From NCBI GenBank assembly GCA_964638155.1, contig CAZWYI010000002.1:5727-69726 (forward strand): a stretch of DNA of 64,000 bases, written 5' to 3'. Shown here piece after piece: positions 10,164-58,400 of this stretch; the stretch's first letter is position 1, and the number at the start of each line of letters is the position of its first letter. Below the pieces are notes generated by a model that worked only from the letters and a program-made list of their open reading frames with translations, was not told the origin of the DNA and did not search any database. Source of the stretch: an uncultured Thermoplasmatales archaeon (lineage in GTDB: Archaea; Thermoplasmatota; E2; DHVEG-1). The position numbers and the translations under genes were made by a program.

Positions 10164-11077
10164 TCAAGGTCTCGGCAGAAGACCAACGGTGTCAACTAAT
10201 TTTGGAATAATATCTTCCCAGAAAAGAGCGGTAATGTGGATTCCGTGAACCCCTCTAATCTTTTTTATTTCCTCAATTAGTTCTACAGCTATGTTAAAAC
10301 CTTCTTTTTTCTGATCCATTGTTTTTACCATACGATTATGATACTCATCTGGTATATCAACACCTGGAACAAAAAACTTCATCCTTTCAGTCATCTTTAG
10401 AGATTTTAGAGGAGTAATACCTGCTAAAATAGAAACTTTTTTGTCAAGGCCTCTGGAGCATACTTCATCCATAAATTCTTTGAATCTATCCAGATTATAA
10501 ACACTTTGAGTTTGAATAAAATCAGCTCCAGCCTCTATTTTTTTTCAAGTCTTTCAATTCTAAAATCAAAAGGCTCAGCAAAAGGGTTACAGGCTGCACC
10601 AATAAAAATAGGTGGAGCACCTGATAAAATTTTATCTCCACTTAGAAAAAATTCTTTATCTCTCATATTTTTAACTATATTTATAAGTTGAATAGAATCC
10701 AGATCATAAACACCTTTTGCATCAGGATGATTTCCAAAAGACTGATGATCACCTGATATAAAAAGAATATTTCTAATCCCACAGGATGCAGCACCAAGAA
10801 CATCACTTTGAAGGGCAATCCGATTTCTATCCCTACAACTCAACTGCATAATAGGTTCTAAACCCATTTTTTGAAGAATAACACTTCCCCCCATGCTAGA
10901 AAGTCTTACAACTGCAGTTTGATTATCGGTAATATTAAAAGCATCAGCATAGCCTCTTAAAATTACTGCCTTATCTTTTATTTTGTCTGGATTACAACCT
11001 TTTGGAGGGCCAATCTCTGCAGTTACAACAAATTTTTTTTCTGAAAGTAATTTCTCTAGATTACTTTTGTAATTCAT
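10164..11077 (-). pseudogene. metF: Methylenetetrahydrofolate reductase (MetF family, acetogen/archaeal type). It is split into two ORFs (10535-11077 and 10164-10472) by a -1 frameshift in an A8/T8 homopolymer at 10538-10545.
   Basis: The upstream ORF ends …NPFAEPFDFRIERLEKK*. Adding one A to the A8 run continues the frame as …IEAGADFIQTQSVYNLDRFKEFMDEVCSRGLDKKVSILAGITPLKS… through to the listed 102-aa ORF. This could be a homopolymer sequencing error or a true inactivation. Confidence 0.6.
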
Positions 11078-23823: not shown

Positions 23824-23890
23824 GCTGGTAGTTTGAAGGACGCCCATCCCGAGGCGCCCTTCTGTTAAGGGGTGCATCCCATCCCCTCCT
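23824..23890. repeat. Composite conserved intergenic motif copy A (GCTGGTAGTTT … hairpin … TGCATCCCATCCCCTCCT), between cdrS and ftsZ.
   Basis: The 11-mer gctggtagttt (23824-23834) and 18-mer tgcatcccatcccctcct (23873-23890) are both repeated at 40346-40384. Between them lies the hairpin GAAGG-a-CGCC/GGCG-c-CCTTC at 23835-23862. Confidence 0.45.
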
Positions 23891-23910
23891 AATTATTTTA
23901 ATGTAGGTAG

Positions 23911-24150
23911 TTATTTTTTCATGTAAGGCTCAATGGACTCGACGGCAAGTTCCATTTCTTGGACTTTTTTTATTTTTTCCGCCTTTTCAATTAAATCATT
24001 GGCATAGTTTTTAATAAAATCGTTTACCGCATGTCGAATAACCTCCGACCTAGTTGCAAACTCTCCAGCTCTCACAAAAAGATCTATTGAGTGAACATTT
24101 CGCTGGGGTAATCTTATGGTTATCCTTTGCGTTTCCATTTTTCTCCTCAC
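23911..24150 (-). CDS. cdrS: Small ribbon-helix-helix DNA-binding protein immediately upstream of ftsZ; a likely CdrS-type cell-division regulator.
   Basis: RITIRLPQRNVHSIDLFVRAGEFATRSEVIRHAVNDFI is the RHH beta-alpha-alpha pattern. Its position directly 5' of and co-oriented with ftsZ fits the conserved euryarchaeal cdrS-ftsZ2 arrangement. Confidence 0.5.
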   Translation of the reverse strand: MRRKMETQRITIRLPQRNVHSIDLFVRAGEFATRSEVIRHAVNDFIKNYANDLIEKAEKIKKVQEMELAVESIEPYMKK

Positions 24151-28585: not shown

Positions 28586-28708
28586 GTCGGGGTGGCTCAG
28601 CCTGGTTAGAGCGCCTGACTCATAAGCGCAGCTTAAAGGGTTCGAAAATAGTTGCCTTTATGGCGTTAAGATATCAGGAGGTCGCGGGTTCAGATCCCGC
28701 CCCCGACA
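28586..28708 (+). tRNA. tRNA-Met (elongator; anticodon CAT) with a ~48-nt canonical-position intron (between nt 37/38, intron ~28625-28672).
   Basis: Acceptor GTCGGGG/CCCCGAC, D-arm GCTC…GAGC, anticodon stem CCTGA/TCAGG split by an insert, loop CTCATA|A, T-arm GCGGG TTCAGAT CCCGC, discriminator A. G1-C72 argues against an initiator. Confidence 0.75.
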
Positions 28709-29158
28709 TACAAACTACTGACTCACCCCCTAAAAAAATTAAATTTACTAAACAGGTTCATATCCGGGATATTTTTAATATATTAACATAAAAACAAACA
28801 AGAAATTTCCAAACTTTAGTTTGCGAGATGAATCGTATGGTAAGATAATTTAAAAAACTGTTAAGTGTTTGTTCCCATAAATGGGAAAACTATCTCATTT
28901 TTGTCATTTAAGGGCTGACAATTTCTAGTATTTCCATAAAATTGCTTAAAAGGCTTTATAAAAAAAATATTGCTAAGGAGTTTATTTTAAAAATAATATG
29001 TGTTGAAAGTAGAAATTTACACAAAGCGAAGATTTTTTAAGTAAAATATATAAATAACAAGTAACATAACTAAGAACTGGTACGAGTAAGACCTGCTGAA
29101 AGAATGACGACTCCATAGCGAGTTTAGGACGAGTAAGCAGGAATCGTGCATTATTTTT

Positions 29159-46087: not shown

Positions 46088-46196
46088 AGCCCCGTAGTGT
46101 AGAGAGGTTTGTTAGGGGTAAAAACCTGCAGATCCTATAAGTCAATCATCGAAGGTTCTGGACCTTTGGACTCCAGTTCGAATCTGGACGGGGCTA
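46088..46196 (+). tRNA. tRNA-Gln(CTG)-like gene carrying a ~37-nt insertion in the 5' (D-arm) region; a probable non-canonical intron.
   Basis: Acceptor AGCCCCG/CGGGGCT, discriminator A. Anticodon arm GAAGG-TTCTGGA-CCTTT (46151-46167; anticodon CTG at 46158-46160). T-arm TCCAG TTCGAAT CTGGA. 56 nt lie between acceptor and anticodon stem, where 19 are expected. Confidence 0.55.
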
Positions 46197-46205
46197 TGTT
46201 ATTTT

Positions 46206-46808
46206 TTATTCTAACATAGTAACATCTATTTTTTCATTTAGATTTATAAGTGTGCCTTCTCCTCTCTTTCCTATACTGCAGTTTACAACTGTTGTCTTAT
46301 CATATTTTGTATATCCTGGATTTTCATGGATATGTCCACATAGTAAAAGCCTTGGTTTGAAATCATCAATTATTTTTTTAAGTTCTTTACTACCACCATT
46401 ATTTCCTTTGTATATTTCATCTTGAATCTTATATGGTGGTACATGACTTACGAGCACACTATCTTTTTCTACTAATTTTTTTTCATTTAGAAAATTATAG
46501 TCACTAGAGTTAAGCCCAGTTATTCCTACAAAATTAATGTCTTTTTTAACAATTTTCTTAAGTTCAATTCTTGTTGCATTACTTTCATCAATTCCTTTTT
46601 TTACATCCTCTGAATCTATATTGCCTGTTACTGCAAGAGTTTCTATTGGTATTTGATCTAAAAAATTCTTTGCAACTTCACCTGGTCCAAATTGAGTTAT
46701 ATCGCCACAAATAACTAAAATTTCTGGAGAATATCTTTCAATATTTTTTAAAACAATATTAAGTCTATATTGTGACCCATGTAAATCTGCTACAGCTAGA
46801 ATTTTCAT
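46206..46808 (-). CDS. Calcineurin-like metallophosphoesterase.
   Basis: Motifs ILAVADLHG, GDITQFG and GHIHE. Confidence 0.7.
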   Translation of the reverse strand: MKILAVADLHGSQYRLNIVLKNIERYSPEILVICGDITQFGPGEVAKNFLDQIPIETLAVTGNIDSEDVKKGIDESNATRIELKKIVKKDINFVGITGLNSSDYNFLNEKKLVEKDSVLVSHVPPYKIQDEIYKGNNGGSKELKKIIDDFKPRLLLCGHIHENPGYTKYDKTTVVNCSIGKRGEGTLINLNEKIDVTMLE

Positions 46809-46829
46809 TGTTTTTCACCTAAGTTTTTT

Positions 46830-48089
46830 TTATGTTGGCATCACTGGATCTTCATAGATGGAGCGTAAATAGTCAAATTTTTCTTCAAAAATTTCTGCCT
46901 GTTTTTGAATTACAATTTCTGCGCTATTGATATCCATGTCTTCTACTTTTTTAGCATAGCTTACAAATCTTCCAAGCCATAAGGTCTTTAATGAGTCAAG
47001 TAGTTTGTATTTATCTTCATCTGTTTTTGCTTGTTTCCATGATGAAGCAAAATTATATACAATTTCAGTCCATATCTCTGAATCAAATTCTTGGCCATTA
47101 TCTACAATATTTTCAAGTTCTTTTAGTATGCTTTCTGGAATATATTGTTTTATAATTTCCTTTGATGTTTCAAATTCTTTTCTAAAGTTTTTCTTCATAT
47201 CTGGAACATTTACTTTCACTGGTATCGGTTTTTGACTAAAACATTCCCTGTAGTATTTTGTTTTAAAGGGAATTGGATGAGTAGCCCAGTATTCTTCATA
47301 ATATTTAGCTAGTTCAAACATTTCTCCAGTAACCTTTCTAAACATTGGAATTAAAAACTTTTCAGGTTCTAAATAATGGGTTGTTGATTCATGTATTTTT
47401 AAGGAAAATAGCCCTTCTTTTACATACATTCTTTCAGCTGCTGCAACAGTTAATATAAAAATATCTATTCCGAAATCAGGTGGGAAAAGTGGATGGTTAC
47501 GTAAAAGTTCATACAAATTTCTTGATATTGCATATTCTCCTGCGATGGGCTGTCTGACATCTATACCATATAATGCTCTAGTGAAAGGATAAACTAGGTT
47601 ATTAGTTATCACTCCATCGTTTTTATCTCTAATATAATAAGGAACTGTTAAATCAGCTCGGCCGTAGACAATAGGGTTTGCAATCATAGGTAGCCACCTT
47701 GGTTTGATACTTAAAAGATCACCGTCCATTAAAACAACCATTTTTGCATCGCACTCATGTGCAATTTCAAAAATAGTCATAACACCTGCACCTTTTCCTT
47801 CAGAAATAATATCTTTTGTAGCTATTTTTTCAATTGATGAATAAGGCTGAAAAAGATCTACTGCTTGATTTGTATCATCACTTGATTCAGCAGTACTTAT
47901 CACTATAGCTTTATTGAAATCTGGAAAATATCTATACAGTCCTTCGTTTATAACATTTAAAACGTTTAACACAGTTGATTCAACGTCTTTACATAAAACG
48001 CCTACTACTATATCCATCGGCTTTATTTTTTTACATTTTTCAATTACTTTTTCATCTAAACTAAGGCCTTTATTCCACTCTTGATTCAT
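46830..48089 (-). CDS. GT-A fold glycosyltransferase, glucosyl/mannosyl-3-phosphoglycerate synthase-like (paralog A).
   Basis: DxD-type LMDGDL, and RQPIAGEYAISRNLY resembling the P(I/L)(S/A)GE(Y/F)A motif of GT81/GT55 retaining glycosyltransferases. Confidence 0.4.
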   Translation of the reverse strand: MNQEWNKGLSLDEKVIEKCKKIKPMDIVVGVLCKDVESTVLNVLNVINEGLYRYFPDFNKAIVISTAESSDDTNQAVDLFQPYSSIEKIATKDIISEGKGAGVMTIFEIAHECDAKMVVLMDGDLLSIKPRWLPMIANPIVYGRADLTVPYYIRDKNDGVITNNLVYPFTRALYGIDVRQPIAGEYAISRNLYELLRNHPLFPPDFGIDIFILTVAAAERMYVKEGLFSLKIHESTTHYLEPEKFLIPMFRKVTGEMFELAKYYEEYWATHPIPFKTKYYRECFSQKPIPVKVNVPDMKKNFRKEFETSKEIIKQYIPESILKELENIVDNGQEFDSEIWTEIVYNFASSWKQAKTDEDKYKLLDSLKTLWLGRFVSYAKKVEDMDINSAEIVIQKQAEIFEEKFDYLRSIYEDPVMPT

Positions 48090-48111
48090 TTATCTCTCCT
48101 CTTCTATTCTT

Positions 48112-49320
48112 TTACTCATTATCTGCAATAGTTACTTCTAGTAACTGCTCACGGATCTTTCTTCTTGCAGAAAGTGTTCTAAGCCAGTCAGGAATACGAG
48201 TTCCTACTGGTTTTCTCATATAGCTAATACCAGCATTCATTATTTGTCTACTGAATTTTTCAACAATAGTTTCTTCTAAATGCCGGTCATATCTAAGATT
48301 ATTAAAATGAGCATCCGCATGATATTTTCTTATTACATCACGAGCATGTCGAACATATAAAACACGTAATGTGATTAATGCTTCTTTTGAAATTTCAATG
48401 TTATCTTCTTCAATTAAAACTCTTAAAAGAGTTTTTAAAATATCTCCTGTCATCTTGGTAAGACCCTTTGTGGTATTTCCTATTTTTTGATGTTTATGAT
48501 CATAAAACCCTAGATCTGTTTGACAGATACTTTTTGCTGTAACATTTCTATACATCTCTGCCATTACACCTATTTCAATTCCCCAGTCACCTGGTAGGTC
48601 TACATCTCTAGCAAGGTCACTTGTGAGTGCAAATTCTCCGGATATAGGATATCTAAAGGATCTTAAAAATCTTGTAAAATCTGTTTCATGGCCGATATTA
48701 TCTACAAAAGCGCGTAATAAAGGATTTAGAAAAAGCCTGAAAACACGGCCATACATAATCCTTTTCTCTAGGTTAACTCTTGCATAGTATCCTTTGTTAA
48801 ACTTGAAATCTAGTTCAGGTTCAATAATTGGATATAAAAGTTTTGTAGGAACCATTTCATCATAGTTTAATACATCTGCATCATGAAGTGCAAAGGCATA
48901 GTTTTTGATACTAGCAACTCCCATTGCAAGCCATACGTCTCTTCCTTTCCCTTGGTATTTTAAAAGATTAAGACCTTCTCTTTTTAAATCAATTAAAAGT
49001 TTTTCTATTTTTGGGCCGTTGCACCACATTATTAGATGAGGGATTTTTAAATCATTAAAAAAACGTTTAACTTCTTGAAAATCTTTTTCTTTGTTTGCTG
49101 CAAGAGGTATGATTACTTCATTTAGATAAGTGCATTTATTCAAATATTTTTTGATATCTATTAATGCATCGCTTTTTATTTCCCTATATAGCATAGGCAT
49201 TATAACTGCTGAAGGGCGATCAGTTACAGCATCTTCAACGTACTTTAGAAGCTTTTTTTTATCAACACATAAATCATGTAAAGTTGTTACTTCATCTTGT
49301 CTTGCATCCAAAATAATCAC
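48112..49320 (-). CDS. GT-A fold glycosyltransferase, mannosyl/glucosyl-3-phosphoglycerate synthase-like (paralog B).
   Basis: LHDADVLNYDE (DxD) and RYPISGEFALTSDLARDV, paralogous to the 419-aa neighbour; its ~400-aa size is typical of MpgS. Confidence 0.4.
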   Translation of the reverse strand: MIILDARQDEVTTLHDLCVDKKKLLKYVEDAVTDRPSAVIMPMLYREIKSDALIDIKKYLNKCTYLNEVIIPLAANKEKDFQEVKRFFNDLKIPHLIMWCNGPKIEKLLIDLKREGLNLLKYQGKGRDVWLAMGVASIKNYAFALHDADVLNYDEMVPTKLLYPIIEPELDFKFNKGYYARVNLEKRIMYGRVFRLFLNPLLRAFVDNIGHETDFTRFLRSFRYPISGEFALTSDLARDVDLPGDWGIEIGVMAEMYRNVTAKSICQTDLGFYDHKHQKIGNTTKGLTKMTGDILKTLLRVLIEEDNIEISKEALITLRVLYVRHARDVIRKYHADAHFNNLRYDRHLEETIVEKFSRQIMNAGISYMRKPVGTRIPDWLRTLSARRKIREQLLEVTIADNE

Positions 49321-55184: not shown

Positions 55185-55464
55185 AAAATATTTTTTGGTT
55201 AAAAGGATGCAGGTAAAACTTTCAAAATAAGAGTTAAAAAAGCTTTTAGAATTTTAGTAAAAAATTCTAAGATAATTGTTTTACCTCTTATTAACACTAG
55301 TTTTGTAGAAATAAAACCATACCTGCATATTTATCTACATATTCTTTTGCACATGTAATTTAATATACATATTTAAATATTAATCATATATTTTTTTATA
55401 TACAGAAAGATATATATTTGTATAGTTTATTTGAGTTGAATAATATTCAGAAAAATTCCACAGC

Positions 55465-58400
55465 ATGAATAAAAAAACATGCTTTTCTCTGAATAATGAT
55501 ACTAGAAGGGATAGGTGGGTAGAATTGCAAAGTAATCTTAATAGAAACAAATATATTTATAGAAAAATTTTATGCTGTTATGTCGTAGGAATATTGATAT
55601 TTGCATCGTTTGTTGTGATGGTTCCAAATAGTAAAGCTGATAATCCTTCAGATTTTATAATAACTTTTTATGAAGATGGTGGAAGTTTCACCGAATCTTC
55701 TAAGTTTGATGTTGGTGATGTTGTTTTTGTAAACATTACGTTAGATGGTCTCTCAGGCGATCCAGTGGGATCTGAACCATATTGTTTGTTTGTCAAAAAT
55801 AATGATACCACTGAAAGTATATATTTCCCTGTTTGGGATAATGATACATCTGGCCCATGGGATGAAGAAAATCAGGATGATGATGGATCTTACTGGGGCT
55901 ATTTTAATTTAACAGATTCAGAAGACTCACATCCACCTTCAGGTCCCGGAGATGCAGCTGTATTAAATTGTTCCGCTGGTGATACTATTTATCTATATGA
56001 AGATAATGGAGTTGGACCAACAAATCCCCTCTGGGATGATGATTTAGATGTTGCTTCTACTGAAATTATAATAGATAGTGATAGTGGAAATGAACAGAAT
56101 TCTGAACCTGATATAAGCTCACCAAATCCCTCCAATAATTCTATCGATGTCTCTATAGATCTTTCTACTCTTAATGTTACAATTGAAGATCCTGAAGGCG
56201 ATTATTTTAATTGGAGTATTGAAACAAGTCCATATATTGGTGGCAGCTCATCATCAGATGATAATAATGGAACCTGCACCTGTGGTGTTGGTGGACTAAA
56301 TTATAATACAACATATTATTGGTTTGTAAATTGTACTGATTCCGGTAGTGGAAATTGGGAAAATGAAACTTTTTCTTTTACAACAATTGCAGATGATCCT
56401 GGTAGTAGTGGCAATAACTCTCCGATTGTTACAGATCCAGATCCAACTAATGAGTCAACTATTTCTGCAGATTCGTTATCTTCACTGAATATTTCAATTA
56501 GTGATCCTGAAGGGGATAGCATTGATTGGAGCATAGAAACAAGCCCATATATTGGTGATAATAGTGCAACTAACGATGTTAATGGTACAAAAACGAGTGA
56601 GATAACTGAGCAATTAACCCCTGGCTCGACGTATTATTGGTTTGTAAATTGTACTGATTCTGGCAGTGGTAATTGGACAAAGAGGAGTTACTGGTTTACA
56701 ATCTCTTCATCTCCGCCAGGTGGAGATATGTATAATGTTTCAGGTTATGTTTTAGATAGTGTGGATGAAGGACCAATACAGGGTGCTGATTTAACGATAA
56801 CTGACAACGCATCTTTTTCAAATAATGCTGTAACAGATAGTCAGGGGTATTATATGTTCCAAAATGTACCTGCTGGTGATTACGATGTAGTTGCATCAAT
56901 GTCTGGCGATCCAGGTTTCGGTCCAATCTGGCAGTCCATTACGGTGTTTGATCATGATGAAACTAACTTTAATTTTACAGTTTCCTTTGACGGTGGTGGA
57001 GATGATGGTAGTGATGATCCGGGGCCTGGTGAAGATGGTATAGAGGGTGAAGTAAATATTAGCGTGGTCGGAACCGTTTATATGGAAAGATCAATGGTTA
57101 CAATTTCTGGTGTCAATCTTACTGCATATCCAAAAAATGATGATAGTAACATTTTGAATAACACGTTTACAGATCAAAACGGACAATTTCAACTAAATTT
57201 TGTAATAAATCAGTCAATTAGTGAAAATTCCAGTGAAATCTGCTTCATGTTTTCTGCTGAAGGTTATGAAACAAACGATGATTGGCAAATGGGTCTTTAT
57301 GATCTCATGGATATGATGGAGCAAGAAGGACAAGTCATGATGGATATGGTAGAACTTGCAAAGATTTGGAATACAACTGCATTTGTAAACGGTACAATTC
57401 TTGATTTAGATACAAATAATCCTATTTCAAATGTTACAGTTGAATTAGAAGGCCCTAACTATTTTGAAAATAGAACTCAAACTGATAATAATGGAAATTT
57501 TTCAGTTGGCTCAATCACAGGGGATGAAAGTGATTTTGAATTAATGTTTGATAAAGAAGGATACTTTACAAATGCATCTGAAATTAACGATGATGGTACT
57601 ATTTCTGCAGGAGATTATATCGAGTTAGGAACTATTTATATGGAGGTAAAACCATCATCTAATGCGTTTATTGAGGGTTATCTAAAATCTGAGGGTAATC
57701 CTATAGAAGATGCAAATCTTATGTTATATGATCCAGCTCATCCATATGAATCTGAAAAAGGTTTTTTTGATATGCCGACTACAGACTCAAATGGCTATTA
57801 TAATATTTCTACCTACGCTGGAGAATTCTATCTAATAACACTTGCTAACATAGTTGGCGAGTCTAGACACGGACCTCCGCTTGGTATTGGTGGATATGTA
57901 AACCAAGTAATTGATGTGGATGTTTCAGCTAATGAAACAGTAGAACAAAATATTAATCTTACAGCTTCAAATCCTGATAATATAAACGTTAATCTAAATA
58001 TCATCAATAGTACTTTTTCATACGCAAGGATTTCAAGAACTATATCATGTAACCCAAGAATAGTTAGATTAATGACAGATGCAAACTTAGATGGGGTAAT
58101 AGATTCTGATGAGGGAGATACATTTAAAAGTTCCATCAACTCATCTTTTACTTCAAGTGGTTATTTTGATGAAGATATGCTTCTAGCAAGAATTCCATTT
58201 ACTTACTATAAACTAGATGGGACATACATTCAACCGCAACAAATCAATGTTGATATAACTGGAATAATCGGAGATGCTGATTCAAGTGATCTGATAACAG
58301 TTTATGTTAATATGTCTATGGTTCCAAGTGGCCAAGTTGACTCAAATGAGTCATTACATAGTATTAGACTTGAAGGATACTATGGTAATCCAGCATTTAA

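Follow-up and report, generated by a model that had tools for sequence, protein, structure and literature searches.

The window analysed here is a stretch of 64,000 nt from an uncultured Thermoplasmatales archaeon (GenBank assembly GCA_964638155.1, contig CAZWYI010000002.1, positions 5,727 to 69,726 of the forward strand). Reading of its sequence identified, at 46088-46196 (+), a 109-nt tRNA-Gln(CUG) gene with the layout AGCCCCG-UA-GUGU-AGAG-(36 nt)-GUCAA-UCAU-C-GAAGG-UUCUGGA-CCUUU-GGAC-UCCAG-UUCGAAU-CUGGA-CGGGGCU-A (Table 1). The acceptor stem, the anticodon arm (CTG) and the T arm are textbook, just as the original prediction had described them, and the distance between the acceptor and anticodon stems is exactly the 56 nt it gave. 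The insertion that it placed in the D-arm region is real too, but comprises 36 nt instead of ~37, and its site can be narrowed to the D-loop, between G18 and G19. Exon 2 lacks a CCA, i.e. the 3' CCA is not encoded, and the predicted mature tRNA has 73 nt, with the terminal pair A1-U72 and the discriminator A73. After excision the D-loop reads AGAGGUCAA (A14 G15 A16 G18 G19 U20 C20a A20b A21), and since the boundary lies inside this loop, the intron splits the conserved G18-G19 (position 18/19). The predicted spliced junction is GUAGAG^GUCAA (here and below the caret marks a cut or joint), in the wider context GUGUAGAG^GUCAAUCAUC.

Table 1. Features of the tRNA-Gln(CUG) locus and other elements of the window (local numbering: end of exon 1, 17 = 46104; start of exon 2, 54 = 46141).
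Feature	Position	Strand	Details
Candidate promoter TTTAAAA	46053-46059	+	TATA-box-like; 29-35 nt upstream of the mature 5' end
tRNA-Gln(CUG), exon 1	46088-46104	+	acceptor 5' strand AGCCCCG, U8 A9, D-stem GUGU, D-loop A14 G15 A16 G18
Central helix H, 5' strand	46099-46102	+	local G12 U13 A14 G15; pairs with 46135-46138
5' bulge AG^A	46103-46105	+	local A16 G17 ^ A18; predicted cut 46104/46105; unpaired in the minimum-energy fold
Intron	46105-46140	+	36 nt, AGGUUUGUUAGGGGUAAAAACCUGCAGAUCCUAUAA; D-loop, between G18 and G19
Inner hairpin h'	46106-46134	+	7 bp (46106-46112 with 46128-46134), bulged U26, 3 bp (46114-46116 with 46125-46127)
Central helix H, 3' strand	46135-46138	+	local C48 U49 A50 U51, intron nucleotides
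3' splice site AA^G	46139-46141	+	local A52 A53 ^ G54; predicted cut 46140/46141
tRNA-Gln(CUG), exon 2, 5' part	from 46141	+	G19 UCAA, D-stem 3' strand UCAU, C26, anticodon arm
Anticodon CTG (Gln)	46158-46160	+	loop UUCUGGA
tRNA-Gln(CUG), exon 2, 3' part	to 46196	+	variable loop GGAC, T arm, acceptor 3' strand CGGGGCU, discriminator A73
Candidate archaeal transcription stop, oligo-T tract	46202-46207	+	5 nt past the discriminator
Metallophosphoesterase gene	46206-46808	-	adjoins the tRNA gene
Two glucosyl-3-phosphoglycerate-synthase-like genes, then the phosphoesterase gene	46206-49320	-	phosphoesterase gene ends beside the tRNA gene
tRNA, anticodon CAU	28586-28708	+	48-nt intron at canonical position 37/38
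DUF3800-X RNA motif (RF02984)	29080-29149	+	
DUF3800-family protein gene	29159-29812	-	
Methylenetetrahydrofolate-reductase-like gene, two ORFs	10164-10472 and 10535-11077	-	adjacent, different frames
Open reading frame	~55446-64000	+	at least 2,852 codons; runs past the window end

Elements similar to the TATA-like sequence of the window are also found upstream of the corresponding tRNA genes at three of the loci described below (L063, L059 and L043); in a host of ~30% G+C, the value of the window, TTTAAAA is weak evidence for a promoter. The oligo-T tract shares nucleotides with the stop codon of the phosphoesterase gene, which is convergent. Of the six orthologs and class members compared, all except L043 have five or more consecutive T within 15 nt 3' of the gene. 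The tract may act as a transcription stop.

The original prediction had considered a permuted gene among the possibilities. Exon 1, intron and exon 2 are colinear and contiguous, so the gene is not permuted. It is scarcely credible that the locus represents one half of a split or permuted tRNA, although such tRNAs are known from archaea whose tRNA genes are disrupted (PMC3218864, PMC4090602), or the mark of an integrated mobile element in the form of an att-site duplication: both tRNA halves lie within 109 nt, neither repeated tRNA fragments nor an adjoining integrase or element gene were found at the locus, its neighbours encode CorA and the metallophosphoesterase, and the insert is only 36 nt long.

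The standard gene finders miss this gene, as had been anticipated. ARAGORN, run both on the whole window and on the local region, called nothing at the site, and the Rfam scan of the window at gathering threshold reported no match there. In a local E-value scan the Rfam tRNA model aligned to positions 6-65 with a sub-threshold score (20.3 bits, E = 0.096) and a 42-nt D-loop insertion. However, once the 36 nt are removed, ARAGORN calls the spliced product tRNA-Gln(ctg). ARAGORN also misses all five of the other distinct tRNA-Gln genes with an insertion at 18/19 (see below). Because ARAGORN and Rfam skip the gene, an annotation made without a BHB-aware (bulge-helix-bulge) intron search would seem to lack tRNA-Gln(CUG), and the same gap is to be expected for other D-loop-interrupted tRNA-Gln genes, the ARAGORN miss having been tested on the five of the 18/19 class. 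The archaeal mode of tRNAscan-SE 2.0 looks for non-canonical BHB introns by default (PMC8450103). Two further covariance-model matches were discarded: the SpF41 sRNA match in the local Rfam scan is spurious, drawing only on the acceptor and T arm with their tRNA-like form, and a weak alpha_tmRNA match at 23850-23952 (-) in the whole-window E-value scan is the 3'-terminal part of a small ribbon-helix-helix ORF.

For comparison, contigs were gathered via homologs of the adjacent metallophosphoesterase, which has many environmental homologs (some of the contigs were fetched), and by two exon-anchored DNA pattern scans. The loci L059-L062 (including GCA_964481275.1) contain at the syntenic spot an intron-less tRNA-Gln(CUG), AGCCCCATAGTGTAGAGGTCAATCATCGAAGGTTCTGGACCTTTGGACTCCAGTTCGAATCTGGATGGGGCTA. 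The gene order GpgS-like / glycosyltransferase / phosphoesterase / tRNA / MscS / HutH is common to them and the window, the phosphoesterases are 72% identical and the neighbouring proteins about 72%. The L059 tRNA equals the sum of exon 1 and exon 2 of the window exactly, save for the compensatory replacement of G7-C66 by A7-U66, it is recognised by ARAGORN, and it obtains 52.2 bits with the Rfam tRNA model (RF00005), versus the 20.3 bits of the unspliced window gene. No alternative excision of the window gene yields the L059 sequence. The intron-less ortholog thus lacks the insert with exact boundaries, which defines the splice junction without recourse to RNA data. At two phosphoesterase-homolog loci (L066-L070) there is no adjacent tRNA and the synteny is broken, so they are uninformative.

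The junction was also approached from the side of the precursor fold. We enumerated all excisions with the 5' end after local position 8-39 and a length of at least 10 nt and scored them by the archaeal BHB geometry, i.e. a 4-bp helix between two 3-nt bulges, each cut after its second nucleotide; applied to the tRNA(CAU) of the window, which has a canonical intron, this rule places the cuts at 37/38. Among all excisions tested, only that with p = 17 and q = 54 joins a fully paired central helix (4/4) to a long (7 bp) inner helix. The central helix GUAG/CUAU consists of G12-U51, U13-A50, A14-U49 and G15-C48, and the loop of the inner hairpin h' is GGUAAAAA. Beyond AA^G the outer helix h is essentially missing (U11.U55, G10-C56, A9.A57, U8-A58, G7.U59; uninterrupted run 0, 3/5 positions pairable), and the motif is therefore of the relaxed HBh' type and does not qualify as a strict hBHBh'. 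The original prediction had pointed to 46097-46150 as the place where a BHB motif might be sought, and it is in this relaxed form that one lies there. The other hallmarks of an EndA-type BHB intron, namely the 4-bp central helix, the 3-nt 5' bulge framed by H and h', and the restoration of the cloverleaf on excision, are all present. When the 109-nt precursor is folded without constraint, central helix, 3-nt bulge and inner helix are all present in the minimum-energy structure (-40.7 kcal/mol, z = -2.9). With the junction fixed by the intron-less ortholog, a 4/4 central helix combined with an inner helix of at least 7 bp arose in 5 of 200,000 trials with shuffled introns, which puts the BHB geometry of this junction far outside chance expectation. 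The suggestion of an intron at a non-canonical position is thereby supported: exactly one excision with a BHB-type fold restores the cloverleaf, and its product matches the intron-less syntenic ortholog.

One might suppose that the 36 nt are retained and that the mature tRNA simply possesses an enlarged D-arm with an extra hairpin, in keeping with the stable hairpin that the insert forms. We regard this as highly improbable, as the insert would part G18 from G19 and sequester G12-G15, which are needed for the D-stem and for the tertiary contacts of the D- and T-loops, as a close relative does without it and shows no other change beyond the compensatory acceptor pair, and as EndA substrates have precisely this 3-4-3 geometry. 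Introns of other kinds were considered and rejected as well. The insert contains neither a C box (RUGAUGA) nor a D box (CUGA), and its 36 nt compare with about 60 nt or more for an intron hosting a box C/D sRNA; a group I or group II intron was likewise dismissed.

An intron at the identical position was found in five other distinct genes (L057, L063, L039, L043 and L056). Three of them are syntenic with the window and have introns of 35-36 nt at the same nucleotide: L057, with neighbours 63-87% identical to those of the window, L063 (together with L064), and L039, labelled only "Methanobacteriota archaeon", with neighbours 44-51% identical; in the tree alignment, the phosphoesterases of L057, L063 and L039 are 72, 72 and 52% identical to that of the window. 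Two are distant carriers with the same position and flanks, i.e. L043 (= L055) from Candidatus Alkanophaga volatiphilum and L056 (= L058), the latter with a 28-nt intron that forms a perfect 8-bp hairpin. In all six distinct genes the GUAG/CUAU helix, the 5' bulge WG^A and the 3' AA^G are constant. The inner helix varies both in sequence and in length (introns 28-36 nt), yet stays paired, and five of its seven pairs differ on both sides, i.e. they covary. Altogether 90.9% of 66 cells (4 central and 7 inner pairs in six genes) are paired, compared to 35-48% when the partners are slid; the pairs were counted on junction-anchored segments, as MAFFT misplaced the gap of the intron-less gene since GUAGAG resembles CUAUAAG. 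For five of the six precursors, the minimum-energy folds obtained without constraint likewise show the succession of central helix, 3-nt bulge and inner helix.

These data bear on the other possibility raised by the original prediction, a degenerate gene, that is a tRNA pseudogene disrupted by a random insertion and no longer used. Its being missed by ARAGORN and its sub-threshold Rfam score would suit such a gene; on the other hand, all four stems are intact, G18, G19, U33 and the T-loop UUCGAAU are present, and the insertion has kept its exact nucleotide position even though the proteins encoded beside the orthologous genes share only 44-87% identity with those of the window; its flanks are invariant, and compensatory changes are seen in the intron hairpin and the acceptor stem. 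Moreover, a relative has a genuine intron-less tRNA-Gln(CUG) at this very locus, and the junction geometry departs from chance as described above. With its stems intact and its conservation compensatory, the gene is not degenerate, and we consider a pseudogene very unlikely.

In the neighbor-joining tree, calculated for a single protein, the intron-less lineage is nested in the intron-bearing group, with L039 as the outgroup. This tree is weak, but the nested position suggests a precise loss of the intron in the L059 lineage. In either direction, the intron-bearing and intron-less pair at one syntenic locus documents an exact gain or loss of an intron.

A peculiarity was noticed in the tRNA-Gln of L063 (GCA_964518165.1) and L064 (JGI 3300001533), which is encoded on the minus strand between the phosphoesterase and CorA genes. 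Its anticodon loop reads CCCUGGA, with C33 in place of the nearly universal U33. The two records, an NCBI metagenome-assembled genome and a JGI metagenome contig, have identical sequences over the region read.

Thus, the window gene very probably encodes a functional archaeal tRNA-Gln(CUG) and is interrupted at position 18/19 of the D-loop by a 36-nt HBh' intron. The data above show the exon and intron boundaries and the HBh' fold with its conservation and covariation, and the exact intron-less ortholog lends indirect support to removal of the intron from the transcript. For expression, cleavage by EndA and ligation we infer the following course. Transcription would begin from the TATA-like element and end at the oligo-T tract. 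In the precursor, G12-G15 of the D-arm pair with CUAU at the 3' end of the intron rather than form the D-stem, and this 4-bp helix, followed by the 5' bulge AG^A and the 7+3-bp intron hairpin, with AA^G on the 3' side, constitutes a relaxed BHB substrate. EndA would cut after the second nucleotide of each bulge (Table 1), a ligase of the RtcB type would join the exons, recreating G18-G19 and the normal cloverleaf, and CCA would be added later.

The window is archaeal, encoding aIF2-beta, aIF2-gamma, S6e, L7Ae, FtsZ, RFC and an archaeal-type PheT. It also encodes a RadB equivalog that scores above the NCBIfam cut-off. RadB is a euryarchaeal marker, by which the host looks euryarchaeal. No match to EndA or RtcB was found among the 51 ORFs of at least 100 aa in the window. 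Euryarchaeota mostly have narrow-specificity alpha4 or alpha'2 EndAs and canonical introns, and efficient cutting of relaxed or D-loop motifs is known only for (alpha-beta)2, epsilon2 or loop-bearing EndAs (PMC4090602, PMC3241643, PMC5829648, PMC6379350); in vitro, the alpha4 and alpha'2 enzymes show next to no cleavage of motifs that are relaxed or lie in the D-loop (PMC3241643, PMC5829648). For a euryarchaeal-looking host and a motif with hardly any outer helix, this counts against the splicing proposed here.

Non-canonical introns were correctly said to be known in archaea, and they have been described in the D-loop as well (PMC3241643, PMC5829648). A close parallel is the pre-tRNA-Glu(UUC) of Methanopyrus kandleri, where a D-loop intron with a relaxed HBh' motif and one properly framed bulge is also found in a euryarchaeon and its removal restores a normal D-arm; excision by EndA has been shown, albeit with lower efficiency (PMC5829648). 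The M. kandleri intron is located at 20b/21 instead of 18/19, in a gene of another isotype that has a canonical intron too, and the EndA of that organism is of the (alpha-beta)2 type without a specificity loop and cuts inefficiently (PMC5829648). The pre-tRNA-Thr2(UGU) of Aeropyrum pernix is comparable in that its intron also lies in the D-loop and the D-arm of the precursor must refold into the BHB; there, splicing has been shown experimentally, the intron being removed by EndA alone (PMC3241643), whereas for the window gene splicing is predicted. A. pernix differs in being a crenarchaeote with a broad-specificity (alpha-beta)2 EndA that has a Crenarchaea-specific loop, and its motif was described as a canonical BHB (PMC3241643). 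With canonical 37/38 introns, such as that of the tRNA(CAU) of the window, the tRNA-Gln intron shares the 3-4-3 geometry and the cleavage rule, and presumably the same EndA and ligase machinery; canonical introns, however, reside in the anticodon loop and use the anticodon stem as the outer helix (strict hBHBh'), whereas the tRNA-Gln intron has no outer helix and requires the D-stem to unfold. Similarly short BHB, HBh' or hBH introns outside 37/38, often missed by generic finders, are known from Thermoproteales, Thaumarchaeota, ARMAN-2, Asgard and DPANN archaea (PMC4090602, PMC3239211, PMC8450103, PMC11291895), and Asgard genomes with >90% intron-bearing tRNAs have been reported (PMC11291895). 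In those groups disrupted tRNAs are numerous and the EndAs possess broad-specificity loops, while the window host is euryarchaeal-looking; besides the tRNA-Gln gene, two tRNA genes were found in the window, and one of them likewise bears an intron, but at the canonical position. Position 18/19 is absent from the intron examples of PMC4090602, a non-exhaustive list that ends in "etc.". Non-canonical BHB introns being long established, the window gene is no new kind of element; it is a well-documented ordinary case of the D-loop BHB introns already described, and no concept is changed by it.

With one genome per species, the exon-anchored scan gave 54 loci, of which one is a chance match in a bacterium. 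The remaining 53 archaeal species genomes contain tRNA-Gln genes with D-loop insertions of 15-50 nt at no fewer than three different positions: ~15/16, mostly in Asgard; ~20b/21-21/22, mostly in DPANN, plus some records labelled Methanosarcinales or Thermoplasmata; and 18/19, in L039, L043 (Ca. Alkanophaga) and L030 (Heimdallarchaeota). Judging from this distribution, the tRNA-Gln D-loop looks like an intron hot spot. The window gene agrees with the whole set in isotype and loop and with L039, L043 and L030 also in the exact position 18/19 and the GUAG/CUAU helix with ...CUAUAA^G, whereas its position differs from that of most Asgard (~15/16) and DPANN (~20b/21-21/22) insertions, and the intron sequences are unrelated. 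Many of the 53 genes also carry a canonical intron and/or T-arm insertions.

The Candidatus Heimdallarchaeota gene (L030, 5883-5945, +) has its tRNA-Gln intron at 18/19 with the same ...CUAUAA^G 3' junction, but the hairpin of the intron is unrelated to that of the window and the 5' bulge is CG^U. From sequence comparison, its likeness may be due either to convergence forced by the exon sequence GUAG or to shared origin.

A near-identical junction, GUAGWG^A ... CCUAUAA^G, hence recurs in distant lineages, a Heimdallarchaeote included. We put forward, as a doubtful and strictly tentative proposal, that an 18/19 HBh' intron is kept in lineages that current schemes would expect to have only alpha4 or alpha'2 EndAs (the RadB-bearing window host, its relatives and Ca. 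Alkanophaga), and that the near-identical junction could reflect horizontal spread and not only shared constraint. Should these hosts have only alpha4 or alpha'2 enzymes, then either an undescribed broad-specificity EndA variant would exist or alpha'2 would handle the D-loop motif in vivo. As the window gene supplies a relaxed D-loop substrate from a euryarchaeote-like lineage, the co-evolution that has been proposed between EndA type and intron position can be tested directly there.

Several other features of the window deserve mention. The tRNA with the anticodon CAU (Rfam score 55.4 bits) is likewise missed by ARAGORN, and the central helix of its BHB contains one C.A mismatch. A DUF3800-X RNA motif (57.6 bits; gathering score 38.2) directly adjoins the gene of a DUF3800-family protein on the opposite strand. 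The methylenetetrahydrofolate-reductase-like gene that is divided between two ORFs could represent either a frameshift (pseudogene) or an assembly error. The long ORF at the end of the window was missing from the ORF list, since the window ends before any stop codon is reached; with its numerous diverged internal repeats, this ORF probably encodes a giant repetitive surface protein. One of the two glucosyl-3-phosphoglycerate-synthase-like genes obtains 554 bits with the NCBIfam model GpgS_Meth, below the cut-off of 700. Together with the phosphoesterase gene, these two may make up a cassette for a compatible solute (glucosylglycerate); the related contigs come from saline sediments, with which such a function would agree.
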